Positions 1-18,028 of a stretch of 64,000 bases of DNA are shown here, piece by piece. Positions within the stretch are counted from its first letter, which is position 1, and each line of letters begins with the position of its first letter. This DNA comes from an uncultured Acidobacteriota bacterium (GTDB taxonomy: Bacteria; Acidobacteriota; Blastocatellia; RBC074), in assembly GCA_963796275.1 (NCBI GenBank), contig CAWCKY010000007.1, positions 32,001 to 96,000 on the forward strand, written 5' to 3'. A program made the position numbers and the translations under genes. The notes under the pieces were generated by a model. That model did not search any database and was not told where the DNA came from. It saw only the letters and a list, made by a program, of their open reading frames with translations.

Positions 1-1302
1 TTGCGCGCACAGCGCGGTTCCAAAGACGCTTCCGACGCGGCTCAGGCGGGATTCGCCTTTCTGCGACGCTATGCGCAGCAACACTGGTCCGAACCGCTGG
101 CCGATGATCTGCCGGTAGGGATCGAGCTGCTGCTGCCGCGATTGCTCGGCGAGGCGGCATCTCACGGGATCGATCTGCCGGCCAAGCCGTATCAGTCGCT
201 GCGAGCGCTTGGTACTCGCAAGCGACTGATAATCGCGGCAACGAAGCCGAGCGCGGGCTCGGGACCGGTGTACTCCTGGGAGGGGTGGGGATTTCAGGCC
301 GCCCCGGAAGTTATAGACGGTTCCGGCGGCGTAGGACATTGCCCCGCGGCCACTGCCGCATGGCTGGCGATGACGGCAAAACGCAATGACCTTAATGGGG
401 TTTTTAACCGAGCTGCGCGCCGGTTTTTGAAAACAGCCTCCGCAGCCTCCGGCGAGAGCGACTCCAGCTTAATGCCTGTTGTTTGGCCTATCAATCGCTT
501 TGAACAGATAGGGGGGCTCCACGCCCTCTCCCTTGCCGGCTTGGTTGACCATCCTCAGCTGCGAGACGCGGCGCGAGCCCAAATTCTCGACCTCAGCCAC
601 GCGTTGCGTCCGGACGGAATCGGCAAGAGCGATCATTTCAGCGTTAATGGCGATTGCACATTTATGGCGATCGCCACGCTGATCGCTGCTGGACATCAGG
701 TCAATAGCCGCGTGATATATCGTTTCCGGCAGAAAAATTCCTTCATCACCTATCCGATCGAGCTTCAACCCTCCTTGACTGCGACCGCTCACGCCGTGCT
801 AGCGCTGGCACGCGCTCGCGACGATGTCAGCTGCTTCGCGCGATATCTCGAAAGCAAAGAGTCGCCCGACGGCCGTTGGGTCGGCGACAAGTGGCACAAT
901 TCGTGGTTGTACACCACGGCGGAAGTGATCATTGCGTTGGCACAGGCTAACCGGACAAAGGCCCTGCCAGCCGCGGTCGCCGCGCTGCTCTGGCATCAGC
1001 GTGAGGGTGGCGGATGGGGCTGCGCCGATCGCCCGACGCTGGCGGAGACCGCATACGCAGCATTGGCGCTCCACATGCTCCGCTCGCGCGGCACTTGCAC
1101 CAAACAGGTTCACCTTGCGCTTGAGCGGGCCGCCGCGTGGCTCGCCGATAACTACGAAGCAATGTCACCGCGAAATGACATCTTCTGGATATCCAAGGAA
1201 CTCTACTGCCCCTACCGGGTCGACCGCGTGTTTATTTTGAGCGCCGTTCTCGCTCTCCATCAAGAATGCGGCGGGAGGAGTAACAATAACAATGCTGCAT
1301 AG
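1..1302 (+). CDS. Class II terpene cyclase (prenyltransferase/squalene-cyclase repeat, beta-gamma diterpene cyclase-like), 5'-truncated by window
   Basis: PVGIELLLP, GHCPAATAAW, QW-like repeats (ESPDGRW, HQREGGGW), DKWHNSWLYTT and WISKELYCPYRV are typical of bacterial class II diterpene cyclases. The DxDD position reads NGDCT (646-660). Confidence 0.85.
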   Translation: MRAQRGSKDASDAAQAGFAFLRRYAQQHWSEPLADDLPVGIELLLPRLLGEAASHGIDLPAKPYQSLRALGTRKRLIIAATKPSAGSGPVYSWEGWGFQAAPEVIDGSGGVGHCPAATAAWLAMTAKRNDLNGVFNRAARRFLKTASAASGESDSSLMPVVWPINRFEQIGGLHALSLAGLVDHPQLRDAARAQILDLSHALRPDGIGKSDHFSVNGDCTFMAIATLIAAGHQVNSRVIYRFRQKNSFITYPIELQPSLTATAHAVLALARARDDVSCFARYLESKESPDGRWVGDKWHNSWLYTTAEVIIALAQANRTKALPAAVAALLWHQREGGGWGCADRPTLAETAYAALALHMLRSRGTCTKQVHLALERAAAWLADNYEAMSPRNDIFWISKELYCPYRVDRVFILSAVLALHQECGGRSNNNNAA

Positions 1303-1682
1303 AGGAACTATATGAGTGCAGCGATGCGACCTGATTCTGGCGTGCTGGAATATCCTCGTCTTCGGTGACTCCTGCACATCCTCCGTGTCGTATGAAGATT
1401 TCGAGCGACTGGCCGGGAGGTGGAACGGGCATTCGTAAATTCCTTCACGCCGATTATGGCGATGATGATGCCCGAATTATTGACATTCAGCTTGGTCGTT
1501 TAATTCTATGCCGAATTGCCGCGTAGTAACACGATGAGTTTATTTCGGCGTTTCAACGCCGGCACCGCCATCCATCACACATTGCGTCACCTTGTGACTC
1601 CTGACTTCAACCGTCGCTATGCAACGCAACGCTCTGATAATACCTACCGGCGTTGATGTTGTTTGAAAATAAATGCAATTAC

Positions 1683-1874
1683 GCAGGGGCAGACCTATGT
1701 GTCATTTGTGTCAAGATAAGCCGTAATCTTCGTAACATCTGGCCACTGAGCGCCCCTTTGGGACATAGGAGCCAGCCTTATTCTTATCTTGGCGCATGAC
1801 CTATGTGTCGGCCCCGGAGTGCGCAACTGTGAACCGGGGGCAGACAACAGGTTAAACATCGGCCTGCCCCCTAC
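1683..1874. repeat. REP-like palindromic element interrupted by a ~90-bp TIR-bounded insert
   Basis: GCAGGGGCAGACCTATGTGTC ... GGGGCAGAC ... GGCCTGCCCCCTAC. GACCTATGTGTC is duplicated at 1692-1703 and 1798-1809 around inverted repeats 1707-1720 and 1783-1796 (12/14 match). Confidence 0.55.
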
Positions 1875-2007
1875 GTTGGATGACGTGGTTGCAGCAATTT
1901 TTCAAATTCAACCTCAGGTCTACGATTGCGCGTCTTTTTTACAATAGGCGTCCTGAAAATATTGAAAAGTTTGACTCAAGGCAGAACGGGAATAATTTAA
2001 ACGGCAC

Positions 2008-2037
2008 ACCGAAAAAAATCGCCTGAAACCGTTATAG
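2008..2037 (+). repeat. 30-bp imperfect direct repeat, copy 1 (copy 2 at 12303-12332)
   Basis: ACCGAAAAAAATCGCCTGAAACCGTTATAG vs ACCGTAAAAAACGGCCTGAAATCGTTATAG, 26/30 identical. Confidence 0.7.
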
Positions 2038-2104
2038 AGGAGCATGCTGATTAGGCGTGGATTGCTGGGTAGAAGGGGATATCCGCAGCTTGGATGAAGC
2101 CTGA

Positions 2105-3463
2105 ATGATGGGTTTATATCTCGCAAGGTCGCGAAGGCGTGGGGGCGCAATTAGTGAAATGAGCTGTTCAGTCGAAACATCACTTTGGAACGATTTTTCA
2201 CGCATGTCATACCAGCAGCGCGCTGGCCGCATCGCCGAACTGGCGCGTCTCGACCAGGCTTCAATTGAAGCGTTGAGTGGCCGCACGGTCACGGCGGATA
2301 TCGGGTTGGCAGAAAGATGCGTGGAGAACGCCATCGGCTATTTCGCGGCGCCCCTGGGAGTCGCCGCTTATATGCTTATTGACGGACGCGACGTCGTCGT
2401 GCCGATGGCCGTCGAGGAGACATCGATCATCGCCGCGGCGTCGAGCGCCGCAAAATTCTTCTACCCCCACGGCGGCGTCACCACCAGAACCGAAGGCACC
2501 CTGGGTATCGGCCAGATCCAGATACCGAGGGCGAGAGATTCGGGTCGCATCATAGAAACTGTTATAGCCAATCACGACCTGCTGCTCGCTTGCGCCAATG
2601 AACTGGTACCAGGCTTGATCGCTCGCGGCGGCGGGGCGCAGCGCATCGAAGGGCGCGTTTTGCCTGGAATGGTAGTGGTCTATATCTATGTAGACACCTG
2701 CGACGCGATGGGCGCCAACCTGATCAATCAGATATGCGAAGGACTGAAGCCCCTCATTGAGGACTTGACCGGGGAAGAAGTCGGCGTCTGCATTCTTTCG
2801 AACCTGACTGACACGCGCATGTCGTTTGCGACTGCGCGCGCACGACAGATTGACCGGCGTCTGGTCGACGGGATCGTCAACGCCTATGAGTTCGCCGCGC
2901 AGGACCATTACCGCGCCGCGACGCACAACAAGGGAATCCTCAACGCCATCGACGCTATTTTATTGGCGACGGGCAATGACTGGAGGGCGATGGAGGCGGG
3001 CGCTCACGCTTACGCGGCCCTCGGCGGACACTACCGCCCGTTGTCGCGCTGGCGTCGTGAGGGTGACGACCTGGTCGGCGAGATCAGGCTGCCTACATCT
3101 GTTGGGATGGTAGGCGGTATGACCGGGATTCATCCGACCGCGCGAGCATGCCTGAAGATACTGGGCGCACAGACGGCTGCTGAACTGGGCCGAATCTGCG
3201 CCGCCGTCGGCTTGATACAGAACTTCGCGGCGCTACGCGCGCTGTCGACCGTCGGTATCGTCAAAGGCCATATGAATCTGCATGCGCGGAACCTGGCGGT
3301 TCTCGCCGGAGCGAATCAGGAAGAACAACCCATGTTAGTCGAGAAGCTGCGCGAGGAACTACTGCATAAAAATCGGATAACGCTGACCCAGGCGCAGGAC
3401 ATTTTGTTAGATATCCGAAACAACGCGGTAACAGGAGGCGCGCTTATGTCGCCCCGTGAGTGA
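2105..3463 (+). CDS. mvaA: Class II hydroxymethylglutaryl-CoA reductase (true start may be ATG 2159)
   Basis: ENAIG, PMAVEETSIIAA, DAMGANLIN, RAATHNKGILN, GMVGG and GHMNLH motifs. Confidence 0.95.
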   Translation: MMGLYLARSRRRGGAISEMSCSVETSLWNDFSRMSYQQRAGRIAELARLDQASIEALSGRTVTADIGLAERCVENAIGYFAAPLGVAAYMLIDGRDVVVPMAVEETSIIAAASSAAKFFYPHGGVTTRTEGTLGIGQIQIPRARDSGRIIETVIANHDLLLACANELVPGLIARGGGAQRIEGRVLPGMVVVYIYVDTCDAMGANLINQICEGLKPLIEDLTGEEVGVCILSNLTDTRMSFATARARQIDRRLVDGIVNAYEFAAQDHYRAATHNKGILNAIDAILLATGNDWRAMEAGAHAYAALGGHYRPLSRWRREGDDLVGEIRLPTSVGMVGGMTGIHPTARACLKILGAQTAAELGRICAAVGLIQNFAALRALSTVGIVKGHMNLHARNLAVLAGANQEEQPMLVEKLREELLHKNRITLTQAQDILLDIRNNAVTGGALMSPRE

Positions 3464-3560
3464 CGCCCTGTGAGACTGAAAATAGCATGGGAGTTCAAGC
3501 TTTAGCCAAAGCTTTAACCTGGCATCTGCCATTGAAAGTTACATACGGAGGATTCTTAAC

Positions 3561-4808
3561 ATGGTCGGAATGGAAGCTTTGGCCTTTTCAGTGCCGCAAT
3601 ACTATATCAACTTAAGTGACCTGGCGGTCGCGCGGGGAATTGACCCGGACAAGTATACCGTCGGTCTTGGCCAACGCGAGATGTCCATCGCTACACCTTG
3701 CGAAGACGCTGTTACTCTGGCCGCCGGAGCGGGACAGCGGCTGCTAGCCAGCTTCGACGTCGATCCGGGGTCCATCGCCTTGCTCATTGTCGGCGCCGAA
3801 ACCGGGATTGATCATAGTAAGCCGATCGCCAGTTACGTTCATGAGTTACTCGGCTTATCCACTCTATGTCGATCTTTCGAGATCAAACATGCATGCCACG
3901 GCGGCATGGCCGGACTATTTACGGCTTCGCAGTGGACAATGTCAGGTCGCGCCGCGGGCAAGAAGGCTCTCATCATCGCCACTGATATCGCGAGATACGG
4001 AGTTGGAGCGCCTGGCGAGCCGACGCAGGGGGCCGGCGCCGTCGCGATGCTGATTTCGGACAATCCAGCGTTGCTCGAGTTCGACACGGACGCCGAAGGC
4101 TACTACTCGAAACAGGTCATGGACTTTTGGCGCCCTATCTACAGCAAAGAGGCCTTCACCGACGGCCACTATTCAATATCCTGCTACCTCGACGCCTTGC
4201 AATACTCCTACGCTGCCTATCGCCGTGATTCCGGCCGCGACGGCGACCCGCATTTTGCGGACCGCTTCGTCGCCTGCCTTTATCACGCGCCGTTCGTGAA
4301 GATGACTCAGAAGGCTCATCAGCGATTGTTGGAGACCGACGCAGGGGCGCCGTTCGCATCCGACAGCCCCGAGATGCAAAGCGCCAGAGATGACTTTGCC
4401 AGGCGAGTGGTGCCTTCGCTGGAGATCAATGCGCGCGTGGGCAACATCTACACCGGATCGCTTTTTCTGTCGCTGGTCAACTTTCTTGAAGACCAGGCCG
4501 AGGGTAACGCCGGGCGCACGATCAGTCTATTCAGTTACGGCAGCGGCTGCCAGGCCGAGTTCATCACCGCCAGAGTCGGAGAGCGGGCTGGACAGGCGAT
4601 GAAACGACAAAGTTTTCGAACGGTTCTGGACGCTCGCACGCGCCTCGACGTGCGTCGCTACGAAGAGATTCTCGAGGCGAACGGAGTGGCAGATCTCAAC
4701 GATTCGAAGGTTTGCGACCCGGAGGTCTGGGGCGTCGCGGGACCATTCGTATACGCAGGGGCGCATAACCATCAGCGGCAGTACGTCAGCCGATCTTCGA
4801 CAATTTAG
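3561..4808 (+). CDS. mvaS: Hydroxymethylglutaryl-CoA synthase
   Basis: ETGIDHSK, EIKHACHGG (catalytic Cys), GEPTQGAGAVA, DFWRP, GNIYTGSL and FSYGSG. RBS GGAGG upstream. Confidence 0.95.
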   Translation: MVGMEALAFSVPQYYINLSDLAVARGIDPDKYTVGLGQREMSIATPCEDAVTLAAGAGQRLLASFDVDPGSIALLIVGAETGIDHSKPIASYVHELLGLSTLCRSFEIKHACHGGMAGLFTASQWTMSGRAAGKKALIIATDIARYGVGAPGEPTQGAGAVAMLISDNPALLEFDTDAEGYYSKQVMDFWRPIYSKEAFTDGHYSISCYLDALQYSYAAYRRDSGRDGDPHFADRFVACLYHAPFVKMTQKAHQRLLETDAGAPFASDSPEMQSARDDFARRVVPSLEINARVGNIYTGSLFLSLVNFLEDQAEGNAGRTISLFSYGSGCQAEFITARVGERAGQAMKRQSFRTVLDARTRLDVRRYEEILEANGVADLNDSKVCDPEVWGVAGPFVYAGAHNHQRQYVSRSSTI

Positions 4809-5037
4809 CCGGAGTTGAGTACGGCCTCGATTGATGAATGGCCGTCTCGATTACGACTCCTAACGCCGCCTTCCTGGACCACGCGTATAAAAAGAGCTCT
4901 CACGGATATGGCGAACTACCAGATATGTTATGTCAACGAATATTTTTTCTCTTGAAAAGGAGATCAAAGAAACATATCCCTTCCAATCAGGTTATCGCCC
5001 GGCGTGACGAATACGTTATCTGCTAATCATTGCTGCT

Positions 5038-6090
5038 ATGGATATCGAACAGTTCGAACAACGGAAGCAGGATCACATCGCGCACTCATTGAGCACGGTC
5101 AACCAGGCCATAGGCATGAGCGGCCTGGAATCCATCCATCTATATCACGAGGCCATCCCGGACCTCGACTTCGAAGAGATCAGCCTAGTAACGACATGTT
5201 TCGGAATGGTGTTACCCACGCCCTTTTACGTCGCGAGTATGACGGCGGGACATGCGGACGCATTGAGCATCAATTGGATGCTGGCGCAGGCATGCCAGGA
5301 GCGCGGATGGGCTATGGGAGTGGGTTCGCAGCGCCGCGAATTGGAGGCCCGATTGGACGCCCGAGCGATAGATGATTGGCAGAGTCTTCGCCGGGCGGTT
5401 CCGGGCCTCGCGCTATTCGCCAACATCGGCATAAGCCAACTGATCAAGGCAGAGGTCTCAGATATCCGTCATCTCGTCGAGTCGCTCGATGCCCAGGCTC
5501 TGTGTGTTCACCTCAACGCATTGCAGGAGGCGATCCAGCCGGAGGGCACTCCGCAGTTCAAGGGGGCCTGGCGGGCGATCGAAACTCTCTGTCGCGAGTT
5601 GGGTTGTCCCGTCATCGTCAAAGAGACCGGATGTGGTTTCCACCGTTCGACGCTGCGCCGCCTCGCTCAGATCGGTCCGGTGGCGCCTTCAGCAGTAGAT
5701 GTCAGCGGACTCGGCGGCACACACTGGGGAAGGATCGAAGGCGCGCGCGCAGGCTTCCACACGCTGCATCAGTCGGCCGCCGCGACTTTCGCCAACTGGG
5801 GAGAGGCTACCGTCGAGAGCGTGCTGGCGGCGCGATTGGAGCTGTCTCCTCAGACGGAGATATGGGCGTCGGGAGGGGTTCGGTCCGGCCTCGACGCCGC
5901 CAAGCTTATCGCACTTGGGGCTCATCGCGTCGGCTATGCGAAGCCCGCACTGGATGCGGCGCTCACCGGGCCAATCGAACTGCGCCGTTGGATGGAGTTG
6001 CAGGAGTACGAGCTGCGAGTCGCTTTGTTCTGCTCCGGCTGTGCCACTACCGCCGTTCTGCGGGACAAGACTGGCTCGTGGGAGATGTAG
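5038..6090 (+). CDS. fni: Type 2 (FMN-dependent) isopentenyl-diphosphate isomerase
   Basis: RKQDHI, SMTAG, MGVGSQR, HLNALQEAIQPEG, VIVKETGCG, DVSGLGGT and ASGGVRSGLD. Confidence 0.95.
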   Translation: MDIEQFEQRKQDHIAHSLSTVNQAIGMSGLESIHLYHEAIPDLDFEEISLVTTCFGMVLPTPFYVASMTAGHADALSINWMLAQACQERGWAMGVGSQRRELEARLDARAIDDWQSLRRAVPGLALFANIGISQLIKAEVSDIRHLVESLDAQALCVHLNALQEAIQPEGTPQFKGAWRAIETLCRELGCPVIVKETGCGFHRSTLRRLAQIGPVAPSAVDVSGLGGTHWGRIEGARAGFHTLHQSAAATFANWGEATVESVLAARLELSPQTEIWASGGVRSGLDAAKLIALGAHRVGYAKPALDAALTGPIELRRWMELQEYELRVALFCSGCATTAVLRDKTGSWEM

Positions 6091-6224
6091 GGAGATTTTA
6101 CGAGACGCAATCAGGTTATCCGAGGAGATACCAAGCGCAAAGCGCAACGGGCTCCACGCGTACCACTCGCACAACATCTGCGCCGATCGGGTTCGTCCAG
6201 CGCTTGATATGGAGATTTTATAAG

Positions 6225-7169
6225 GTGTGTAGTTTCGATATTGCCGGGAAAGTTTTTGTTTTGGGTGAGTACGCGGTCCTGGGCGGATTGCCCGCTCTGG
6301 TGGCCGGCGTCGCCCCGCGCTTCTCCGGTTCGCTGCGTGAGGCTATGGATGAAGGCCCCTACTGGCACGCGGACAGCCCTGTAGGCCGCCTACTGCGCTG
6401 GGCCCGGGAACACTGCGGGGTGAGATTCTCCTTCCATTTCGAGGACCCTTATCATAGTGGGGGCTTCGGCGCTTCGACAGCGCAGTTTGCCATTGCCTAT
6501 GCCGCTGGGGCTGTGCGGCTCGGGTTGAGTTGCGATTGGCGAACCGCATGGCAGTTCTACCGCAAATTGACGGGCGCTGATGAAACGACTCCGAGCGGCG
6601 CCGATCTCGTCGCTCAGCTGCGGGGAGGAGTAACCCTCTTCAATCCGGTTTCGCTGAGCTGCGCGGACATCTGGGACGAATTCGACTGGTCGCGGCTGCT
6701 GGTCTTTGCGCCGAATGCGCAACCTGATCGAAAGGTCGCCACACACGTTCACCTCAAAGAGTTTTCCCTGGGAAGCCAAGAGATCGATCGCACCCAGCTG
6801 TTTTCCCGTTTGGCGGACCCCTTAAAAAAAGGCCTCACAGCGATAGATCGAAAGAGCGTCTACGATCTGGGCGCGGCGATGGATTGGTACGCCGACGCGC
6901 TCGCCGAAAACGGCCTGGAGGCACGTGTCACTTTCGAGGACCGGCGGGCGCTCAGGGCGATGCCGGGCGTGTGCGGAGCGAAGGGTGCCGGCGCTATGCA
7001 AGCAGATGTTGTACTTGCGCTCATGACGCCGGACGCGGATGCAGAGCCGATTATTCGGTCGGCACGGACACGCGGGTTGAAGCTGATATGTCATGGGTTG
7101 ACGCGGCAACCCGGAATCCAACCCCTTTTGCCACAGAAACACGGAGCCACGGAGCTTACGAGTAGGTAA
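6225..7169 (+). CDS. GHMP kinase, probable phosphomevalonate kinase
   Basis: GTG start at 6225 after RBS GGAG (6211-6214), in frame with track ORF 5376..7169. Motifs GKVFVLGEYAVL, GGFGASTAQF, PSGADL, KGAGAMQAD. It is the second GHMP kinase in an MVA operon. Confidence 0.8.
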   Translation: MCSFDIAGKVFVLGEYAVLGGLPALVAGVAPRFSGSLREAMDEGPYWHADSPVGRLLRWAREHCGVRFSFHFEDPYHSGGFGASTAQFAIAYAAGAVRLGLSCDWRTAWQFYRKLTGADETTPSGADLVAQLRGGVTLFNPVSLSCADIWDEFDWSRLLVFAPNAQPDRKVATHVHLKEFSLGSQEIDRTQLFSRLADPLKKGLTAIDRKSVYDLGAAMDWYADALAENGLEARVTFEDRRALRAMPGVCGAKGAGAMQADVVLALMTPDADAEPIIRSARTRGLKLICHGLTRQPGIQPLLPQKHGATELTSR

Positions 7170-7180
7170 AGGATATTCAT

Positions 7181-8200
7181 ATGCCTCAGGGAGCGATTTT
7201 CGAGATTCCATTTCCGTCGATGATCAATCCACATCTGGCGCCGGCGCGTGCCGCCAATCTTTCCTGGGTCCGCGCCCGTGGCCTGGCGCGCAGCGAGGCC
7301 AGGATGGAGGAGTACCTGTCGTGGGACCTGCCGCAGCTGACCGCCCGGACCTATCCATATGCCGACCGCGCCGATCTGGAAATGCTGATGAACTTTTTCA
7401 GCATTTTTTTCCTTATTGATGACGAGTTCGATGAACCGCAGGGCGACCGGCGGGCGCAACTGGCCGCGGTGACCCAGGAGATGATCACCATCCCGTTTCG
7501 TCCGGCAGGAGCCCCTCCGGACATCGTCTGCCCGATCACGCTGGCATGGGTCGAAGTATGGACGGACATGCGCCGCGGGATGTCGGAAACCTGGCAGAAC
7601 CTATTTGCATCGAACTCGGCGCGTTTCCTCACCGCCAGCTTGGAAGAGGAGCGCCTTGCCGCCAGCTCGGCGGTATTGGATCTCAACTCGTACGTGGAGC
7701 TGCGCCGCCATAGTGTGGGCGTCTATCACGGATTCGATTTGGCCGAGCGGAGCCGGGGCTTCGAGGTCCCGCCTCACGCGCATTCCCACCAGCGGATGCG
7801 CGACCTTCGCGCCGCTGCGACGGACACAATCGGGTTCATGAACGATGTGCATTCTCTAGAGCGGGACGAGCGCAAGGGCAAATCCTATAACCTAGTCGCT
7901 GTACTGCGAAGGGAACTCCGCTGTTCCCGGGCGGACGCCATTGAACGGGCTGTGCGGATGGCCCGCGAGCGGCTCAAGGCGGCACTCGAATTGCAAGCGA
8001 AGAGCCCGCACATCAGCGCCGAACTGAGACTTTCCAGCAACGAGTGCGTGGCGGTGGAACGGGGTGTGGAGGGAATCCGGAACTGGATCCGCGGCTACCA
8101 CGATTGGGCCTGTCAGAGCAGAAGGTACGCGGCGTCAGGCCCGATCGAATCATCGCTGGCTCCTGTCCGGCATGAGGATGATCTACTGGCCCTGACCTGA
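7181..8200 (+). CDS. Class I terpene synthase (pentalenene synthase-like fold, probably sesquiterpene)
   Basis: DDEFDE (DDxxD), LRRHSVG pyrophosphate-sensor Arg, NDVHSLERDE (NSE) and WACQSRRY (WxxxxxRY). Confidence 0.93.
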   Translation: MPQGAIFEIPFPSMINPHLAPARAANLSWVRARGLARSEARMEEYLSWDLPQLTARTYPYADRADLEMLMNFFSIFFLIDDEFDEPQGDRRAQLAAVTQEMITIPFRPAGAPPDIVCPITLAWVEVWTDMRRGMSETWQNLFASNSARFLTASLEEERLAASSAVLDLNSYVELRRHSVGVYHGFDLAERSRGFEVPPHAHSHQRMRDLRAAATDTIGFMNDVHSLERDERKGKSYNLVAVLRRELRCSRADAIERAVRMARERLKAALELQAKSPHISAELRLSSNECVAVERGVEGIRNWIRGYHDWACQSRRYAASGPIESSLAPVRHEDDLLALT

Positions 8201-8283
8201 AATTCTATATCGGAACAACCGACATTGGCGCATCGAGTGAAATATAAAATATTTCACATGCCATTCGGCAACGGAGAAAAGAC

Positions 8284-9387
8284 ATGCAACTAACTGTGTG
8301 CGCCCTCGCTCCATCTAACATAGCGATAGTTAAATACATGGGAAAGCAGGACGACGCGACCAACATACCTGAGAACCCGAGCCTGTCAATGACGCTGAAC
8401 AGGCTGCGCAGTTGCGTGGAGATAACTTGCGCCAACGCGGATGGCCCGGCTGAGGCGACGTGGGTGCCAGAGCCTCCGCTTCTGTGGAGCAGACAGGCGA
8501 GTCTCAAACTCGAAGTCCCGCGTCTCGATGAAGCTGGAATAGCCCGCTTTTTGCGCCACTTCGAGCGCGTGCGTCGTGCCGCGCCGGCGATACTTGCGAG
8601 ATACGGAGTACCGATTACCGCGCAGGATGGAGAGAGGTGCTCTTATCTGATTCGAAGCGGGAACACCTTTCCGTCGTCGACCGGCATCGCATCGAGCGCC
8701 GCCAGTTTCGCCGCACTGACATTGGCGACGGCGATGACGCTCATAAGCGATCAAGCAGCATTTGACGGCACCTGGGAATCGGAAACGGGTTTGCGAAGAG
8801 ATATGGCGAGCCTGTCGCGACAAGGATCAGGCAGCTCTTGCCGCTCGTTTGAAGGTCCCTGGGTCGGATGGGAGGCGGATCGCGTTTTTAAAATGAATGC
8901 CTCGACGCCGGAGCTTAGCCACTTCGTTTTGCTGGTCAGCGACGAGGCCAAGAAGATTCCTTCTTCCAGGGCCCACCAGCTCGTTAAGGAATCACCGCTA
9001 TGGACGGGGCGCGTGGAGCGCGCGAGCGCGCGATTCGAGCAGGCCTGCAGGGCACTATCTGAAGGAGACCTGACCCGCCTCGCCCGAATCGCGTGGAGAG
9101 AAGCCTGGGAGATGCACAGCTTATTCCACACTACGGCTGAGCCTTTCTCATATTGGCGCCCCCGCAGCATAGAGTTACTTCAGTGGCTCGCGCCGGCGAT
9201 CAACGGGCCGGCACCTGCCATCGTTTCGCCCCCGATCGTCTCGATGGACGCCGGTCCGAACGTGCATCTGATCGTCGAGGCGGCAGATGCTGATATGTGG
9301 CGTGAGAGATTGATTCGCCGTTACGGCGCGGGCGCTTTCCTCGAAGATGAGCCGGGCGACGGCGCCGCCCCATTCGGGCGATGTTGA
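8284..9387 (+). CDS. mvaD: Diphosphomevalonate decarboxylase
   Basis: APSNIAIVKYMGK, NPSLSMTL, GIASSAASFAAL, GSGSSCRS and DAGPNVH. Confidence 0.95.
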   Translation: MQLTVCALAPSNIAIVKYMGKQDDATNIPENPSLSMTLNRLRSCVEITCANADGPAEATWVPEPPLLWSRQASLKLEVPRLDEAGIARFLRHFERVRRAAPAILARYGVPITAQDGERCSYLIRSGNTFPSSTGIASSAASFAALTLATAMTLISDQAAFDGTWESETGLRRDMASLSRQGSGSSCRSFEGPWVGWEADRVFKMNASTPELSHFVLLVSDEAKKIPSSRAHQLVKESPLWTGRVERASARFEQACRALSEGDLTRLARIAWREAWEMHSLFHTTAEPFSYWRPRSIELLQWLAPAINGPAPAIVSPPIVSMDAGPNVHLIVEAADADMWRERLIRRYGAGAFLEDEPGDGAAPFGRC

Positions 9388-11332
9388 TGAAGCTCTATCA
9401 CCACCCAACATAACAATGTTTTCATTACCACTTATGACTGACTTGCGGCATAGACCGGGCGCCGCCAACAGACCCGTCCCGAACCCTGATGCCGATGTAA
9501 AAAGGGCGATCGGATTTCTGCGCGAGCGATGCGCCCCGAATGGATTTCCCTCTTTTGTTTCCCCAGATCCCGGCTTTTCTTCGCAGGTCGAGTCCGCCGA
9601 AGAAGTGTTCACGTCCATGCTGATTCTGCGCTCATTTGATGACTGTGGCCTGGACGCGCCAGGTGAGAAACGTCAACTTGAGAGAGTTTGTCGGTCTTTC
9701 ACTCGGCAGGGTTTCGTTCACTTTTTTGCGGACCGCGGCATGCTCGCGGCGGACGTCGACTGCACAGCGGCGGGGATCGAGCTGGCGCTCAAGCGCGGCA
9801 TATCGCTGGCTTTCGACGTCAAGCGCGTACTGGATGTCATTGCCGCGAACGTCGACGATTCCGGTGTGCTATGCGTCTATCTCGATCCCGATGAAAGTCG
9901 AAAGGATCGCGTGGACGCGGCCGTCTGCGCCAACACGCTCTACCTCTTTTATATGCTCGGCCGCGAAGCCGATCTGAAGGCTTCCGAGCAATACGTCTGG
10001 AATCAACTTACGGGGATCCGGTTCTCGGAGGGAACGCGCTATTACCCGTCCCCTGACATTTTCCTGCTGTTCCTGTCACGACTGCTCGCTGATTTTGAAC
10101 GCTCCCGAGCCCGTTTTGCAGCTGCGGTGGAATGGCGGATTCGCGAACGACTCGGCCTGCCCGGATCGAATGTCGAGCTTTCCGCACGCGTGACAGCGGC
10201 GTGGAAAGTGGGGTTACACGCGGAGCGGGAGTTGGATGAACTCGCGCGTGCCCAGAGAGTCGACGGCTCGTGGCCGGCCGCGCCCTGCTTCCGATTCGGA
10301 CGCCGGCCGGTGTATTTCGGCGGGGAGAGCCTTTCCACAGCCTGGGGCGCATGCGCCCTGATGATCGGTTCGCGGCGCCTTCCACGCACGGCGCTCGCGA
10401 GAGAAGTCGTCATGGACGGCTCCGGCGGATCGCGACTCAGCGAGCGGATCACCTATCCGTTTGGTTGTTTCGAATTGAATGCGGATCAGATTGAGCTGGT
10501 CCGAGACGAACTTGCCAGCCTGTCCGATCGCTACCAGCTCTTCGAGGGGCGGGAGGAGTGGAATCACATCCTCCTGACCTTCATCACCTATTGCTCCGCA
10601 CGCAGCCCCGAGGACGACGCCCTACGTCTGCTCTGTCATTTTCTGTATATGACGGTGTTTTTTAACGAGGCCCGCTCGCGGGGGCTGAATCGGGATTTAG
10701 CGCTCAACTACGCGGGAATTATGAGAGGCGGGCAAGCGCGCGCTTCCCATCCCGTACTCAGTGCCGCGCGAGATTTCCGTCTGCGGTTCGATCGGCTGCT
10801 CGCGGCGAAGGAGAGCGACGCCTCGGCCTTTTTCCATTACTTCGGTCTCAACATCTCCTCCTTCTTGCGAGACGCGACGGCCGACCATTCCGATCCTCGC
10901 GACCCGCGCACATCCCTGTGGGTGCGATTACACTCCATTTCCGCCCTTGCCTACTTCCAATTCTGGAAACTGCTTCTCAGGGTCGGCGCGCGCGAGGAAC
11001 TGCCTCACGCCACTGACATCTTCCGGTGTGAAATGCTGTCGGCCAGAATTCAAAGCCTCGCTAACGATATCTGTTCTATCGAAAGGGACGCGCGCGAGGA
11101 CTCTCTGAATATAGTATCCGTAGTTGCCCAGCGCGAGAACATTCCGTACAAGCTGGCGTTGAGTACGGTTCGACGATGGCACGACGACGCCGTAACGGAG
11201 TACGCCGACGCCACCCGCCGCGCGAGCAAGGTTACTCCGCCAGGCCCGGTTGCCGATTACCTGGAATTCATTGAGTCCTGCACAGCAGGGAACGTGCAGA
11301 GCATGCTTTCCCTTGCGTCCAGGTATTCATAA
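9347..11332 (+). CDS. Bifunctional terpene cyclase: N-terminal class II beta domain (HAD-TC/drimane-cyclase type) fused to C-terminal class I synthase-like alpha domain; start may be 9416 or 9434
   Basis: N-half: HFFADRGMLAADVDCTA, RVDAAVCANTLYLF, GTRYYPSPDIFL, AQRVDGSW, YFGGESLSTA. Linker MDGSGGS. C-half: ITYPF, WVRLHSISA, NDICSIERDARE (NSE), LNIVSV and terminal SRYS; the DDxxD site is degenerate (FFNEA). Confidence 0.8.
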   Translation: MSRATAPPHSGDVDEALSPPNITMFSLPLMTDLRHRPGAANRPVPNPDADVKRAIGFLRERCAPNGFPSFVSPDPGFSSQVESAEEVFTSMLILRSFDDCGLDAPGEKRQLERVCRSFTRQGFVHFFADRGMLAADVDCTAAGIELALKRGISLAFDVKRVLDVIAANVDDSGVLCVYLDPDESRKDRVDAAVCANTLYLFYMLGREADLKASEQYVWNQLTGIRFSEGTRYYPSPDIFLLFLSRLLADFERSRARFAAAVEWRIRERLGLPGSNVELSARVTAAWKVGLHAERELDELARAQRVDGSWPAAPCFRFGRRPVYFGGESLSTAWGACALMIGSRRLPRTALAREVVMDGSGGSRLSERITYPFGCFELNADQIELVRDELASLSDRYQLFEGREEWNHILLTFITYCSARSPEDDALRLLCHFLYMTVFFNEARSRGLNRDLALNYAGIMRGGQARASHPVLSAARDFRLRFDRLLAAKESDASAFFHYFGLNISSFLRDATADHSDPRDPRTSLWVRLHSISALAYFQFWKLLLRVGAREELPHATDIFRCEMLSARIQSLANDICSIERDAREDSLNIVSVVAQRENIPYKLALSTVRRWHDDAVTEYADATRRASKVTPPGPVADYLEFIESCTAGNVQSMLSLASRYS

Positions 11333-12198
11333 TGTGGGTTAAGTTTAAAACCTGTCTACCAGGAAAATGGGTCCTGGTTGGAGAACATGCTGTGATGCGC
11401 GGCGGTATGGCCATCGTCTTCCCTTTCCCGGAAGTGAGCCTCTGCCTCGACTTTGTTCCGCAACGAAGCAAAAAGCTGAAAGTTACTCCGCCGGACGCTG
11501 AGCCAGTGATACATGAGCTACTCAGAACTTATGAAAGTTGGAGGAGTGGGAATGACGGGTTTTCCTTGCCCATGGGCAGCCTGACCATTCAGAGCGATAT
11601 ACCTCAAGGCGCCGGCCTCGGCTCTTCAGCCGCTTTGTGCTCGGCTGTGGCGCGGTGGATCGCCAGCGCCACAGGTCTTCCGTTAACTGAGCTGGCTGAA
11701 CTTGCGCGCTGTTTGGAGTCCCGTTTTCACGGCGCCAGCAGTGGCATGGACATCGCGGTCGTGCTTGCCAATGCGCCGATCGTATTCGAGAAAGGCGGTC
11801 AGCCGCGAATACTGAAGCTCGGGAGAATTCCCCATTTCACTCTGCACGATACGGGGTTGCGGTCGAACACTTCCGATTGTGTCTCACGGGTAAAGACATT
11901 CATAGCCAGAAATCCGAAGAGGGCTACCGCCGTAGACCGGGCGATGGACGCTGCGTCATTCCAAGCGTTGAAAGGGCTATTGAATTACGGCCGCGGTGAA
12001 GAACAGGCCGGGTTGAAGGCGATCGCCGAAGGAATGCGAATGGCGCTTGATTGTTTTGGCGCCTCGAACTGGGACCTGATTTCCGGAGACGAAGAGCGAT
12101 TGATCCGGTCGCTGCTGAACGATGGCGCGTTGGCCGTGAAGCCGACGGGGGCAGGTGGAGGCGGTATGGCACTGGCGCTCTGGGATCGCCCAGGATGA
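11332..12198 (+). CDS. mvk: Mevalonate kinase
   Basis: PGKWVLVGEHAV, PQGAGLGSSAA, FHGASSGMD and KPTGAGGGG. Coupled to the upstream fusion gene by a TAATG overlap. Confidence 0.9.
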   Translation: MWVKFKTCLPGKWVLVGEHAVMRGGMAIVFPFPEVSLCLDFVPQRSKKLKVTPPDAEPVIHELLRTYESWRSGNDGFSLPMGSLTIQSDIPQGAGLGSSAALCSAVARWIASATGLPLTELAELARCLESRFHGASSGMDIAVVLANAPIVFEKGGQPRILKLGRIPHFTLHDTGLRSNTSDCVSRVKTFIARNPKRATAVDRAMDAASFQALKGLLNYGRGEEQAGLKAIAEGMRMALDCFGASNWDLISGDEERLIRSLLNDGALAVKPTGAGGGGMALALWDRPG

Positions 12199-12422: not shown

Positions 12423-12737
12423 AGGTCGCCTGACTCTCGAGATGACTACGGCATTTTGTTAGCTGGCATTCTGTCAATCAACTAATAAACCTATATCAGT
12501 TACTTCGGTTGTTCTGTTAATTTCAGAGCAACCGTTTTTTATGGTGAAACTGATTTGGGACAGATTTCGTCTGCCCCCGTGAGTTGACGGCATCACGTAT
12601 TCGCTTCGAGTTGATTCTGGTGTAGATTGCAGTCGTGTTGATATCTTTTGCCCGGTCTTTATGCCCGGTCACATCGCAAGCCGCAATGATGCGGCCCGTT
12701 CGGCAAGTCGAATATCGATCAAGGAGAAATATTCCGC

Positions 12738-14139: not shown

Positions 14140-16722
14140 ATGCGTAACACACTCTACCTTTTGCTGGCCGCAGCAATGTTTTTCTCAGCGATCTGGATGT
14201 CTTCGGTGACCGGCGCGTCGAATCAAGGCGCAGCCGGACAGCAACAGATCGAGCCGCCGACCTTGCAGGTACAACCCGTCGGCCTGCCCAACTACGATGT
14301 CCGCGAGGAGCTTCGCGACGCAGCGCCAAGCCGAGTGAATCAATTGGGCGCGGCGGTTGTCGCCACCGATACACAGGCGATGCAGAACGCCATTGAATCT
14401 TTCCGTCAGCGAATTCCTCTCGAGGCGCGTGATAATTTACGTGTGGTGATGAGCGATACGGGTCTGCCGAAAATGGTGTTCAATATTGAGGGGCCGCTCT
14501 CCGTTCCCCAATCGGACCTGCCGGATTCGATCGCGCGCGGTTTTCTCGCCGATCATTCGGCCATGTTCGGACTCGACCGGGGCCAGATCTCCGAGATGAA
14601 ATTGAAGAATGCGGATAACGACAATGGCACGACCTTTTTAAATTACGAACAAACGGTCGACGGCATTCCTGTCTTTCAAGGGGAAGTTCAAGTGGTCGTC
14701 AACGCCAACGGGCAGGTGATCTCTATCAACGAAGGGCTGGTAATTCCCGACCCCCGAATCGATATGGCTCCCAGGCTTTCCGAGAGCGAAGGCATGCAGA
14801 TGGCTTTTCTGCACGCGGGCAGAGTGGCGCCTGCATCGTTCGAGATGATGGAGGACCGGATAGCTAAAGGCGAACGAGCCGTTTATCGAAACCCGTTCGG
14901 TGAGGACCGCGAGAATATTCTCTCTGGTATGAGAATTATGCGCGTCGGGCTGCGAGCCGTACTCGCCTGGCACTCCTACGTGGATGTCGGGGCGAACGAA
15001 TGGTACGAAATCCTGGTCGATGCGAATACGGGAGCGATGCTCTATCGCCACAACCTCTACGCGGACGTCGCCCAGGGAACGGTCTTCCGGGTGAATGGGT
15101 TAGGTCAACGCACGCTCGAATCTTTCGTCGGGGATACGACGATCAACACGGCCGCCGGCTGGATGGGCACTTCGACGGTGACGACAGGCAATAACGTCGA
15201 TGCCTATTTGGACACGAATGCGGATAACCAACCGGATGCGATTACTACCACCGGTATTCAAAACGGACGCGCCTTCTCGTCCATACAGGACTTCACCTTC
15301 CCATTCACACTGGGCATTGATCCTCGGACGCAAAGAGCGGCTGTTTTGGCCAGTCTCTTCTATTTTAATAACATAATGCACGATTTTTCTTACCGGCTCG
15401 GGTTCACTGAATCGGCTGGCAATTTCCAGACGAATAACTTCGGGCGTGGTGGGACCGGCAATGATTCGGTCAGAGCCGAAGCGCAGGATGGATCGGGTAC
15501 CAACAACGCAAACTTTGGGACGCCGCCCGAAGGATCGCGCCCGCGTATGCAGATGTTTCTCTTCACGCGCGGAACGTCTGATCTGAATGATGACCGCGAC
15601 TCCACATTCGACGGCGATGTCGTATTGCACGAGTATGGTCATGGAATTTCGAATCGTCTGGTTGGCGGGCCGGCAAACACGAGCTGTTTGGGCGGAACGC
15701 AAGCGGGCGCTATGGGCGAAGGCTGGTCGGATTACTGGGCTTCCACATTCTATAATAATGGCGTTGTCGGCGAATTTGTCACCAACAATTTGACGCGCGG
15801 CATTCGCCGCGCCGCCTACACGGTTCCGGCGAACCCGGTTCACGATTCTTACGCCGACCTGGGAGTTGGAGGCTTTCAGGTCCATCGCGACGGCGAGGTC
15901 TGGGCTGCGACATTGTGGGATTTACGACAAACGCTGGGCGCCACCATCGCCGACAGGCTGGTCCTGCAAGGAATGAAGTTCACCCCCTGCAGTCCATCCT
16001 ACCTCAATGCTCGCGATGGCATCTTGATGGCTGATCAGAACATCAACGGCGGTGCGAACAGATGCACCATTTGGCGCGTCTTCGCGCGTCACGGGATGGG
16101 CGTCTCGGCCCAAGGGAATAACGGCACCACGCACGTCGCCGCAACCGATATACCGCAGGATTGCAACGGCGGTGGGGGGGCGACGACGATCTTCCTCGAC
16201 AACTTCGAGACTAACCAGGGATGGACGGCCAACCTGAATGGAACCGACACAGCGACGACAGGACAATGGGCGCTTGCTAATCCCGAGACTACAACTTCGA
16301 GCGGAACCAAGCAGCTCGGAACCACTGTCAGTGGGGTGAATGCCCTGGTTACAGGCGCCCTGGCCGGCTCCTCCGCCGGAGTCAATGACTTAGACGGCGG
16401 CGTCACAACCGTCATGTCACCGGCAATCACCTTACAAGGAGGAACCAGCTTCACGCTGACCTTCTCCTATTACCTGGCCCACGGAACCAACTCCTCGACC
16501 GCCGACTTCTTCCGCGTGCGGGTTGTGGTCGGCAGCACCGTAACCACAGTATTCCAGGAACTCGGCGGCACTGAGGACGACGATGCAGTCTGGGCCACCG
16601 GCACGGTGAACCTCAGTCAGTTCGCCGGACAGACGATCCGAATCCTGGTCGAGGCGGCGGACGCCAGCGGCGCAAGCCTCGTCGAAGCAGGCCTTGACGA
16701 CTTGAGGATAACAAGGCAGTAA
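14140..16722 (+). CDS. Secreted M36 (fungalysin) metallopeptidase with FTP propeptide and C-terminal beta-sandwich
   Basis: Signal peptide, GFTESAGNFQ, NNANFGTPPEG, HEYGHGISNRL, GAMGEGWSD and VHRDGEVW. Confidence 0.92.
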   Translation: MRNTLYLLLAAAMFFSAIWMSSVTGASNQGAAGQQQIEPPTLQVQPVGLPNYDVREELRDAAPSRVNQLGAAVVATDTQAMQNAIESFRQRIPLEARDNLRVVMSDTGLPKMVFNIEGPLSVPQSDLPDSIARGFLADHSAMFGLDRGQISEMKLKNADNDNGTTFLNYEQTVDGIPVFQGEVQVVVNANGQVISINEGLVIPDPRIDMAPRLSESEGMQMAFLHAGRVAPASFEMMEDRIAKGERAVYRNPFGEDRENILSGMRIMRVGLRAVLAWHSYVDVGANEWYEILVDANTGAMLYRHNLYADVAQGTVFRVNGLGQRTLESFVGDTTINTAAGWMGTSTVTTGNNVDAYLDTNADNQPDAITTTGIQNGRAFSSIQDFTFPFTLGIDPRTQRAAVLASLFYFNNIMHDFSYRLGFTESAGNFQTNNFGRGGTGNDSVRAEAQDGSGTNNANFGTPPEGSRPRMQMFLFTRGTSDLNDDRDSTFDGDVVLHEYGHGISNRLVGGPANTSCLGGTQAGAMGEGWSDYWASTFYNNGVVGEFVTNNLTRGIRRAAYTVPANPVHDSYADLGVGGFQVHRDGEVWAATLWDLRQTLGATIADRLVLQGMKFTPCSPSYLNARDGILMADQNINGGANRCTIWRVFARHGMGVSAQGNNGTTHVAATDIPQDCNGGGGATTIFLDNFETNQGWTANLNGTDTATTGQWALANPETTTSSGTKQLGTTVSGVNALVTGALAGSSAGVNDLDGGVTTVMSPAITLQGGTSFTLTFSYYLAHGTNSSTADFFRVRVVVGSTVTTVFQELGGTEDDDAVWATGTVNLSQFAGQTIRILVEAADASGASLVEAGLDDLRITRQ

Positions 16723-17137: not shown

Positions 17138-18028
17138 ATGGTCATCGACAATCTATCACGCCGCTCTTTCCTCCTCGCTTCTTCAGGATTGGTTGCGAGC
17201 GGCACACTCCCACGAGCTACGCAGACGCTCACTGCCGGGCAAGTGATCGATCGCATCAAAGCCAGCGTCGGCATTCCGTGGCGCGCTCAAACGGTTGATA
17301 ACATCATCGCTGGAACGGTGGAGACGCCTGTCAAAGGAATCGCCACCACGATGATGGCGACGCTTGACGTCGTTCAGAGAGCCGCCGCGAGCGGGAAGAA
17401 TATGGTGATCACCCACGAGTCGACTTTCTTCTCGCACCAGGATCGAACCGACCATATCCTTCAGGATCCTACCTATCAATTCAAACTTAATTTCCTGAAC
17501 AAGCACAATATGGTTGTGTTCCATTTCCACGATCATTGGCACGGTCGGCAACCGGACGGAATCGCCATCGGAATGATGAGGGAGTTGGGCTGGGAGAAGA
17601 AGGCCGACCCGGATAACCCTAAGATGTTTACTTTCTCGGAAACCCCGCTCGCGCTACTTGCCCGAGAGATGGAGACGAAGTTGAAGATTCGCACTATGCG
17701 CGTACTTGGCGATCCAAATTTGCCAGTCAAACGCGTGCTTGCGAGTTGGGGGAACCTGAGCCTGATGCCCGGCATTCCCTTTCTTTCGCGACCCGACGTG
17801 GATGTACTGGTGGTCGGGGAGACACACGAGTGGGAACTGGTCGAATACGCTCAGGACGCAATCACCTCAGGGCAAAAGAAAGCCCTTATCGTGCTCGGCC
17901 ATGTTGTGTCGGAGCAAGCAGGAATGAAGTATTGCGCCGAATGGCTGAAAGGCTTCATCAAGGATATCCCAATAGAGTTCGTCGCAGCGCCCGAGCCATT
18001 CTGGACTCCCGGCAACCCGATACGATAA
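17138..18028 (+). CDS. Tat-exported NIF3-like dinuclear metal protein
   Basis: SRRSFL Tat motif, [25 protein letters not shown] and [11 protein letters not shown]. Confidence 0.88.

Follow-up and report, generated by a model that had tools for sequence, protein, structure and literature searches.

Mevalonate cassettes that lie beside the terpenoid gene clusters of actinomycetes supply those clusters with precursors, and cluster-linked mevalonate pathways are an actinomycete hallmark, while the Acidobacteria, which are abundant in soil, have a chemistry that is little studied. The present work concerns a terpenoid gene cluster in a 64,000-nt stretch of DNA from an uncultured Acidobacteriota bacterium (GenBank assembly GCA_963796275.1, contig CAWCKY010000007.1, positions 32,001 to 96,000; the whole of this stretch is called “the window”), in which the genes of the mevalonate (MVA) pathway are interleaved with terpene cyclase genes. 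Particular attention is given to one protein of this cluster, a fusion of a class II beta domain with a class I alpha domain.

Two groups of described enzymes come closest to this fusion. The first is that of the gamma-less drimane cyclases represented by AsDMS from Aquimarina spongiae, a drimenol synthase of the HAD-TCbeta kind, for which structures (PDB 9mhs, 9mlo, 9m7d-f) and structure papers (PMC12232559, PMC12365925) are available. The second is that of the bacterial tridomain class II/class I diterpene synthases, which occur in both domain orders, including alpha-gamma-beta (PMC12164552).

Layout of the cluster and its probable precursor supply

On the sequence evidence, the locus is probably an accessory terpenoid cluster of ~16 kb (C7:28256-44198), in which two co-oriented blocks of genes are divided by a repeat-filled spacer and the cyclases are fed by the mevalonate pathway. 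Positions marked C7 refer to the contig, of which the window is C7:32001-96000, so that a window position is the C7 position minus 32000; the assembly comprises 9.46 Mb in 7 contigs and is 94.7% complete. Genes were identified by listing open reading frames (ORFs) and scanning them with Pfam and NCBIfam profiles. The host had been taken for an acidobacterium from the window alone, and the elongation factor EF-Tu agrees with this: among the 120 EF-Tu matches listed, all 7 organism-named rows are “Blastocatellia bacterium”, at 94-96% identity. The features of the locus are given below, in window positions except where C7 is stated.

C7:28256-28846, + strand: extracytoplasmic function (ECF) sigma factor, 196 aa (Sigma70_r2/r4/ECF, Pfam)
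C7:29007-30107, + strand: TS1, class I terpene synthase, 366 aa, P0005 (PF19086, 82 bits)
C7:30124-30522, + strand: 132-aa ORF, P0240, no family match; may not be a real gene
C7:30814-31680, + strand: trans-prenyl diphosphate synthase, 288 aa from GTG (PF00348, 130 bits, profile positions 29-224 only)
1-1302, true start C7:31755, + strand: class II beta-gamma cyclase, P0003, 515 aa (PF13243; SQHop_cyclase_C 29.5 bits, cut-off 26.1)
1303-2104, no strand: non-coding spacer, 802 nt (dispersed repeats)
2105-3463, + strand: HMG-CoA reductase (HMGR), 452 aa, NAD-type (class II) model (PF00368 312 bits; TIGR00532 347.5, cut-off 259.95)
3561-4808, + strand: HMG-CoA synthase (HMGS), 415 aa (PF08540 and PF01154 above cut-offs; TIGR01835 357.4, just under 360.35)
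5038-6090, + strand: type 2 isopentenyl diphosphate isomerase (IDI-2), 350 aa (TIGR02151 308.4, cut-off 281.3)
6225-7169, + strand: divergent GHMP-kinase-like protein, like phosphomevalonate kinase (PMK), 314 aa (position, weak motifs, language-model neighbours)
7181-8200, + strand: TS2, class I synthase, 339 aa, P0004 (PF19086 133.6 bits)
8284-9387, + strand: diphosphomevalonate decarboxylase (MVD), 367 aa (PF22700 and PF18376 above cut-offs; TIGR01240 142, cut-off 171)
9416-11332, + strand: beta-alpha fusion, gene-caller form of 638 aa within the ORF 9347-11332 of 661 aa (AsDMS homology and PF19086)
11332-12198, + strand: mevalonate kinase (MVK), 288 aa (GHMP_kinases_N 59.4 bits; TIGR00549 134, cut-off 163)
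12506-12534, + strand: strong terminator-like hairpin between MVK and bioB (11-bp stem, then a run of T)

Block 1 consists of the ECF sigma factor, TS1, the small ORF, the prenyl diphosphate synthase and the beta-gamma class II cyclase, and block 2 is an operon-like run of HMGR, HMGS, IDI-2, the PMK-like gene, TS2, MVD, the fusion, MVK and a terminator. The original prediction, made from the window, had placed nine genes from the class II cyclase to MVK on one strand, with an 11-nt gap between the PMK-like gene and TS2 and a TAATG overlap between the fusion and MVK. The ORFs and the profile scans reproduce all nine genes in that order on the + strand; the PMK-like gene ends in TAA at 7167-7169 and the ATG of TS2 lies at 7181, and the TAATG occupies positions 11330-11334. 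Around TS2, MVD, the fusion and MVK the successive gaps in the sequence are 11, 83 and ~28 nt, followed by the 1-nt overlap. The three cyclases that had been counted are all present, but the total was too low, because a fourth, the class I synthase TS1 (C7:29007-30107), lies outside the window. This emerged from C7:26001-45000, which includes the upstream sequence that the prediction had proposed to retrieve and in which the cluster reaches ~3.7 kb 5' of base 1. A genome-wide search with PF19086 gave three matches, all within the cluster region and one of them 2 kb 5' of the window. The window edge truncates the class II ORF, whose start lies 245 nt upstream and whose full length is 515 aa; at the other end, the hairpin at 12506-12534, which is likely to be the 3' end of the operon, precedes the start of bioB at window position 12738.

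The mevalonate operon looks like an accessory precursor supply, an add-on to the lineage, and was probably acquired. The check on the methylerythritol phosphate (MEP) pathway that had been proposed found Dxr, IspE, IspF (in a 411-aa frame), IspG and IspH above curated cut-offs in the genome, and Dxs was not found. HMGR, which is present in a single copy here, was found in 7 of the 41 genomes searched, of which this genome is one, in neither of the 2 same-genus genomes and in 1 of the 22 other same-family genomes (the family counts include one genome, G004, that is flagged as unpublished, and the pattern is unchanged without it). The presence of the MEP genes, taken together with the finding of HMGR in a single one of the 24 relatives from the family, argues that the operon is accessory and is not the sole housekeeping isoprenoid route of the cell. 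The PF00368 scores of HMGR are 423-442 bits in the relatives against 313 here, and no homologue of the PMK-like protein was found in the 5 HMGR-bearing relatives searched. The GC content of the cluster is 58.2%, compared to a genome mean of 54.3% (standard deviation 1.9%), a level reached by 3.3% of 16-kb windows of the genome. By inference, the operon may be the dedicated supply of the cluster.

Several observations weigh against this reading of the locus. It had been suggested that a prenyl diphosphate synthase and a thiolase may lie upstream of base 1; the synthase is indeed there (C7:30814-31680), but no acetoacetyl-CoA thiolase was found among the ORFs scanned, which cover 20 kb on the upstream side and 6 kb on the downstream side, the genome-wide content not having been searched. 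Pfam scans of the ORFs also found no tailoring enzyme in the cluster. The PMK-like protein is taken to be the phosphomevalonate kinase by its position, by weak motifs and by its language-model neighbours. Its ORF lies where it had been placed, with a probable start at GTG 6225 that is preceded by GGAG and does not directly follow IDI-2, but it has no Pfam or NCBIfam match even at E<=10. A 69%-identical homologue adjoins MVD on its 5' side in a 3.5-kb contig (L027), the ESM Atlas clusters closest to the protein (scores 0.95-0.97) are those of GHMP kinases or “phosphomevalonate kinase”, and the motif GKVFVLGEYAVLGG aligns with the N-terminal motif of MVK, in a weak hhalign alignment of 21 residues only. 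The best PDB match, a weak one, is mevalonate kinase (E 0.055), and the AlphaFold model, built from a 2-sequence alignment, has a mean pLDDT of 32 and is unusable. For MVK and MVD the corresponding NCBIfam equivalogs are the best matches though they fall below their cut-offs, and the Pfam models GHMP_kinases_N, MVD-like_N and MDD_C pass.

The absence from the assembly of any Dxs match above cut-off, with either TIGR00204 or PF13292, belongs with these observations, since it leaves room for some dependence on MVA. Taken at face value in a genome that is 94.7% complete, it would favour the alternative that the mevalonate operon is the main isoprenoid route of the cell, the MEP pathway lacking its first enzyme and the cyclases being mere neighbours. 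This alternative is very improbable, because the Dxs gap is a property of the whole family: TIGR00204 exceeds its cut-off in 0 of 16 genomes of the Blastocatellia family and in 5 of 25 genomes overall, while Dxr is above cut-off in 25 of 25, and IspE, IspF, IspG and IspH are intact here. A family without Dxs in which, by a separate search, HMGR occurs in 1 of 24 relatives must make its isoprenoids without Dxs and without MVA. It also counts against the cyclases being mere neighbours that they lie within the operon, at junctions of 11 nt and 1 nt. An accessory operon thus remains the preferred reading, and in the proposed pathway it would provide extra isopentenyl diphosphate and dimethylallyl diphosphate for the cyclases of the cluster.

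The beta-alpha fusion and its relatives

The description of this protein as a beta-alpha fusion is upheld by homology of its N-terminal domain to the AsDMS-type barrel, with which AlphaFold and Foldseek agree. Its probable start is the ATG at 9416 or 9434 and not position 9347, so an overlap with MVD is not required. In the AlphaFold model, a beta barrel at residues ~46-342 (nt ~9482-10372; pLDDT ~90) is followed by a disordered linker (residues 345-375) and by the alpha domain (residues ~379-660, nt ~10481-11326), which is modelled with moderate confidence. Residues 47-340 align with residues 227-524 of AsDMS (phmmer E 1.4e-27, profile E 2.5e-42), the identity to AsDMS being ~26%, and the domain is also homologous to fungal AstC. 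The top 10 Foldseek matches of the N-terminal domain are AsDMS chains (E ~1e-16, rmsd 2.2-3.3 A over 305-320 columns), and monodomain cyclases such as MstE rank lower. There is no gamma domain in the fusion, the N-terminal domain being a single barrel of ~300 residues that aligns with the beta domain of AsDMS only. A geosmin-synthase-like alpha-alpha architecture is ruled out by this beta-barrel N-terminal domain.

The residues that matter for class II chemistry in AsDMS are retained in the barrel. The acid motif of the fusion is D136-V-D138-C-T-A, and D138 aligns with AsDMS D323, the general acid (PMC12232559). R231 and Y232 align with R415 and Y416, and K186 and R188 with R368 and R370, all four of which bind phosphate in AsDMS, while Y233 and F88 align with the aromatic residues Y417 and F271 (PMC12232559). 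Across 16 aligned homologues, D136, D138, C139, T140, R231, Y232 and Y233 are invariant, and the positions compared above as a group are either invariant or close to it. Because the acid and the phosphate-binding residues are conserved, the beta domain is proposed to carry out a cyclization that is initiated by protonation and in which the diphosphate is kept. The DCTA motif of oxidosqualene cyclases resembles the DxDC pattern seen here; an epoxide substrate is nevertheless not favoured, since the cluster has no epoxidase gene and the group that AsDMS protonates with its DxDT motif is an alkene.

In the precomputed Pfam annotation, the N-terminal domain of the fusion and of its homologues P0006-P0013 carries PF28380.1. 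The Pfam version scanned lacks this model and gave no match to the N-terminal domain; a recent Pfam family may already cover this beta domain. The collection of 5.8 billion proteins that was searched also holds eight standalone beta proteins of the AsDMS type (P0014-P0021, 363-388 aa), whose organism-named rows are Streptomyces (Streptomyces arboris, S. longwoodensis and others). According to a 2024 paper (PMC12453296), Streptomyces had no described homologue of the marine drimenol synthases, and the cyclase for the rearranged-drimane olindenones is unidentified. By sequence, the standalone homologues could be candidates for the cyclases that form the olindenones and other rearranged drimanes.

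The alpha domain is related to class I synthases by its PF19086 score of 35.2 bits (cut-off 23.7), by Foldseek matches with target-normalized TM-scores of 0.52-0.58, and by Atlas neighbours that are terpene synthases. It retains the N573-DICSIERD motif, R527, which lies 46 residues before N573, and a C-terminal R659-Y660; R527 is presumably the diphosphate-sensor arginine, and R659-Y660 the C-terminal RY of the class I diphosphate site. The column that should hold the DDxxD motif, however, reads FFNEARS, and ionization of the diphosphate is to that extent not assured, which counts against a class I step in this protein. The change is shared to a varying degree by the family: in 64 aligned rows the first two motif positions are ND in 32, DD in 11 and NE in 5, the first aspartate-rich motif is replaced by NE or IE in the clade of the query, and the N-D-x-x-S-x-x-x-D (NSE) triad is kept in 57 rows.

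Fusions of the alpha and beta families are rare. A search with the alpha domain of 1.84 billion representatives of 50%-identity clusters (E<=0.001) returned 75 representatives, six of which join the two families, four as beta-alpha and two as alpha-beta and all with DVDCT(A/S); the occurrence of the fusion in both domain orders argues that the two domains act on the same pathway. The close homologues in the 5.8-billion-protein collection number five full-length proteins other than the query itself, at 67-82% identity and all metagenomic. One of the homologues, P0009, is 70% identical to the fusion in the alpha domain and 71% over the whole protein.

The fusion was found in none of 40 relatives and in none of a sample of 400 genomes of the phylum; wider scans gave two short contigs only from metagenomes and three beta-only loci from genomes. 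An alpha-type gene is present in one of the three beta-bearing genomes, 6 kb from the beta gene. On that contig (L024), which belongs to a metagenome-assembled genome (MAG) of the Polyangiaceae, an unfused beta homologue (41%) lies at 1200-2309 and an alpha-type synthase on the same strand at 8258-9412, the latter having 24% identity to the alpha domain of the fusion (E 6e-17). Chemotaxis genes like cheB, cheR and cheA stand between the two, and a gene for methyl-accepting chemotaxis protein (MCP) signalling follows the alpha gene. None of the other 300 genomes in the phylum of this MAG gave a match to the beta domain.

The contig L027 shows the place of the fusion in the operon. Its gene order is that of a PMK-like gene (69%), MVD (80%) and the fusion (76-78%), and no synthase separates the PMK-like gene from MVD. 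The original prediction had held that cyclases are inserted among the MVA genes, and a direct step from PMK-like to MVD without the class I synthase is what such an insertion leads one to expect. This order places the fusion in the conserved core of the operon and makes TS2 a variable insert.

The mechanism proposed for the fusion, by analogy with the enzymes named above, is that of a two-step enzyme, class II and then class I, on one chain, a tentative reading to which somewhat less than an even chance is given. In the first step, D138 of the beta domain would protonate a prenyl diphosphate, of which farnesyl diphosphate (FPP) is the likeliest, at its terminal double bond, and by analogy with AsDMS the diphosphate would be kept, giving a drimenyl-type bicyclic diphosphate. 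Through the NSE triad, R527 and the C-terminal RY, the alpha domain would then bind this bicyclic allylic diphosphate and ionize or remove the diphosphate group, so that a hydrocarbon or an alcohol would be the end product.

The loss of the aspartate-rich motif suggests a different division of labour, in which only the beta domain cyclizes, the alpha domain is non-catalytic or takes the role that the HAD phosphatase has in AsDMS, removing the diphosphate, and the product is a drimenyl-type diphosphate or alcohol. The replacement of the motif by NE or IE in the query clade, and the scarcity of DD (11 of 64 family rows, against 32 with ND), speak for such an enzyme, as does AsDMS itself, whose partner domain only removes phosphate (PMC12232559). 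It is nonetheless unlikely, because the alpha family as a whole keeps the NSE triad, the upstream arginine and the C-terminal RY, the two domains of the fusion are equally conserved, and in general chemistry an asparagine can still bind a metal ion.

A wider proposal that builds on the two-step reading is more doubtful, if still worth stating. The fusion may found an undescribed bifunctional class in which a gamma-less DxDC barrel hands a bicyclic diphosphate to a class I domain without the aspartate-rich motif (ND/NE), so that a skeleton is made that neither type makes alone. The fusion would be integral to a mobile mevalonate operon, always between MVD and MVK, with supply and cyclase travelling together, and the unfused beta homologues of Streptomyces could be olindenone-type cyclases.

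TS2, block 1 and the unity of the cluster

TS2 is a canonical class I sesquiterpene-synthase-like protein by its sequence, with the motifs DDEFD and NDVHSLERDE and a PF19086 score of 133.6 bits. It resembles the 7-epi-alpha-eudesmol/pentalenene synthase family in its DDxxD and NSE motifs and in a full-length match to NF041564 (7-epi-alpha-eudesmol synthase), and it matches PDB 6q4s at E 3.9e-99. Its product cannot be named, because the NF041564 score of 378 bits falls far short of the equivalog cut-off (680); in the proposed pathway TS2 would turn FPP into a sesquiterpene.

A longer prenyl diphosphate may feed block 1, in which the beta-gamma cyclase and TS1 would yield a second product. TS1 has the motifs WDDAQVEEED and NDLGGLAKD. 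In the prenyl synthase, the first aspartate-rich motif (FARM) reads DDIAD and is preceded by Gly at -5 and Ser at -4, and the second (SARM) is DDIGN. Small residues before the FARM go with products of C20 or longer, and it is on this basis that a longer substrate is suggested for the block; no NCBIfam model comes near its cut-off for the prenyl synthase. The best solved relatives of the class II cyclase P0003 are 6vpt, the halimadienyl diphosphate synthase (E 4.8e-32; PMC9585517), 7xkx (Tpn2) and 5bp8, in end-to-end alignments with E values from 4.8e-32 to 8.4e-22, and its family numbers 299 proteins at E<=1e-20.

Two features of these genes tell against an intact block 1. The acid motif of P0003 is NGDCTF, which retains the middle aspartate and has Asn at the position of the first, where 118 of 120 family members have Asp, and an activating role has been assigned to that first Asp in a related enzyme (PMC9585517). 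DGDDTA is found in 71 of the 120 and DGDCT(F/S/A) in the nearest relatives; P0241, an 89% orthologue, reads DGDCTF. In the prenyl synthase, the N-terminal part including KRFR lies before the first start codon, and a stretch resembling the N-terminus, from an ATG at ~C7:30692, sits in a different frame from the ORF; the frame break is either a true frameshift or an assembly indel. The genome has three paralogues of this synthase, all distant, to which tblastn aligned the core only.

If both features are real defects, the cluster would be partly decayed, with the prenyl synthase a frameshifted pseudogene, the beta-gamma cyclase crippled by the change from D to N, and block 1 inactive in this strain. 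The N-terminal part in the other frame and the occurrence of NGDCTF in P0003 alone among the 120 family members examined both fit such decay. This outcome is unlikely, if by a smaller measure than the alternatives above, because the frameshift may itself be an artefact: a second copy of the EF-Tu gene tuf (G000:C6:1279081-1280270) is split over several reading frames, a sign of a pseudogene or of an assembly indel, and in the latter case it suggests that indel errors are present in the assembly. The reads available gave no clear cover of the site: no RNA run was among the sequencing runs listed, and a soil-metagenome DNA run that contains 0.16 of the words yielded 19 contigs, of which those listed are 189-353 nt long, with little cover at the frameshift.

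The spacer at 1303-2104 bears on whether the two blocks are one cluster. It consists largely of short dispersed repeats, of which the genome holds dozens of copies at ~75-90% identity, and these may be a family of elements like miniature inverted-repeat transposable elements (MITEs). Between 1477 and 1906, repeat segments of ~70-120 nt have >20 copies elsewhere in the genome at ~75-90% identity, and a 12-nt direct repeat pair, GACCTATGTGTC, lies at 1692 and 1798, within a 14-nt inverted repeat. An Rfam scan of the spacer gave no match at E<=0.1, and one of the 19-kb locus gave nothing credible, with a single match to an archaeal-type snoRNA at E 0.02 and below the gathering score. In a sigma-70 promoter scan, the locus had fewer sites than shuffled sequence has, and its + strand had none.

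An 802-nt spacer of dispersed repeats that splits the blocks into possibly independent units is a further point against a single cluster, and so is the absence of a shared promoter in the promoter scan. The blocks may on this view be two unrelated neighbours, a sigma-controlled class II and class I module and a mevalonate operon with cyclases of its own, and L027 does carry the MVA-fusion unit, though its 3.5 kb do not extend far enough for block 1 to be seen. Against this stands a 34,061-bp metagenome contig that encodes homologues of genes from both blocks: the class II cyclase (89%), the fusion (82%) and, as members of the same 90% clusters as their counterparts here, TS1, HMGR and HMGS, together with BioB. 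The contents of this contig come from protein-cluster tables and give gene content, not gene order. The association of the two blocks has thus survived divergence to 82-89% identity, and their chance adjacency is improbable, without being negligible.

The genes on either side were judged to lie outside the cluster or are neighbours of it. Downstream of bioB are an M36 fungalysin-type metallopeptidase of 860 aa with an FTP propeptide motif (window 14140-16722) and a NIF3-family protein with a weak match to a twin-arginine translocation (TAT) signal (window 17138-18028), both judged outside the cluster. The upstream neighbours, on the minus strand, include a TPR-CHAT protein of 1076 aa (C7:14612-17842, L001:2612-5842) and a Ser/Thr kinase of 808 aa with CarboxypepD_reg, PEGA and TonB_C domains (C7:18153-20579, L001:6153-8579).

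Comparison with described enzymes and clusters

The cluster had been called a probably undescribed terpene pathway, and no paper on such a cluster or such a fusion was found in searches of the open-access literature. In the open-access papers and preprints found (supplements aside), there is no description of a fusion of a gamma-less beta domain with a class I alpha domain and none of a mevalonate-linked terpene cluster in Acidobacteria, and literature searches on drimane-type cyclases and on mevalonate-linked acidobacterial terpene clusters yielded no characterised acidobacterial terpene cluster. On literature searches alone, the cluster is probably undescribed, and to judge from its genes it probably makes uncharacterised terpenes.

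The mevalonate cassettes of actinomycetes resemble block 2 in being a second, cluster-linked MVA pathway with a type 2 IDI in a host that has MEP genes. The cassette described here differs from them in its acidobacterial host, in its gene order, in the two cyclase genes inside it and in the very divergent GHMP kinase that takes the place of PMK. A cluster-linked mevalonate pathway in an acidobacterium of the Blastocatellia, with two cyclase genes inside the operon, is what the locus adds to this picture.

In block 1, P0003 shares with the halimadienyl diphosphate synthase (6vpt), Tpn2 (7xkx) and the ent-CPP synthase PtmT2 (5bp8) a beta-gamma didomain of ~500 aa and the middle Asp, but it is unlike them in NGDCTF, in which both flanking Asp are replaced, and in its distant identity, and it belongs to a large uncharacterised family of Sorangium, cyanobacteria and Chloroflexota.

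The fusion is outside the HAD-TCbeta group because it has no HAD domain, outside the tridomain group because it has no gamma domain and outside the canonical class I group because it has no DDxxD. Its resemblance to AsDMS and to enzymes of the fungal AstC type extends to the gamma-less single beta barrel, which is homologous over the whole domain, and to the general-acid Asp, the phosphate-binding R/Y and the aromatic residue, which are conserved; AsDMS has, moreover, two activities on one chain, as is proposed for the fusion. The partner of the barrel is in AsDMS an N-terminal HAD phosphatase and in the fusion a C-terminal class I alpha domain, no HAD match having been found in the fusion with Pfam, with NCBIfam or in the model; the fusion is therefore not a member of the HAD-TCbeta enzymes, though its beta domain is related to theirs. 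The acid motif is DLDTT in AsDMS and DVDCTA in the fusion, which is also embedded in a mevalonate operon.

The tridomain gamma-beta-alpha enzymes (ChjDCS, StrDCS, bAbS) and the plant enzymes of the CPS/KS type share with the fusion the joining of class II and class I domains in one polypeptide, but the fusion has no gamma domain and its alpha domain has no DDxxD, its beta domain is of the AsDMS lineage and not of the beta-gamma CPS type, and its substrate is probably C15. An alpha family without the aspartate-rich motif bears on how strictly class I chemistry requires that motif. The described enzymes found that carry class II and class I domains on one chain are tridomain diterpene synthases, and the gamma-less drimane cyclases are phosphatase fusions; the beta-alpha enzyme, if the proposed reading is true, would add a third solution to these two, and with it a compact way of reaching sesquiterpene skeletons for which both chemistries are required.

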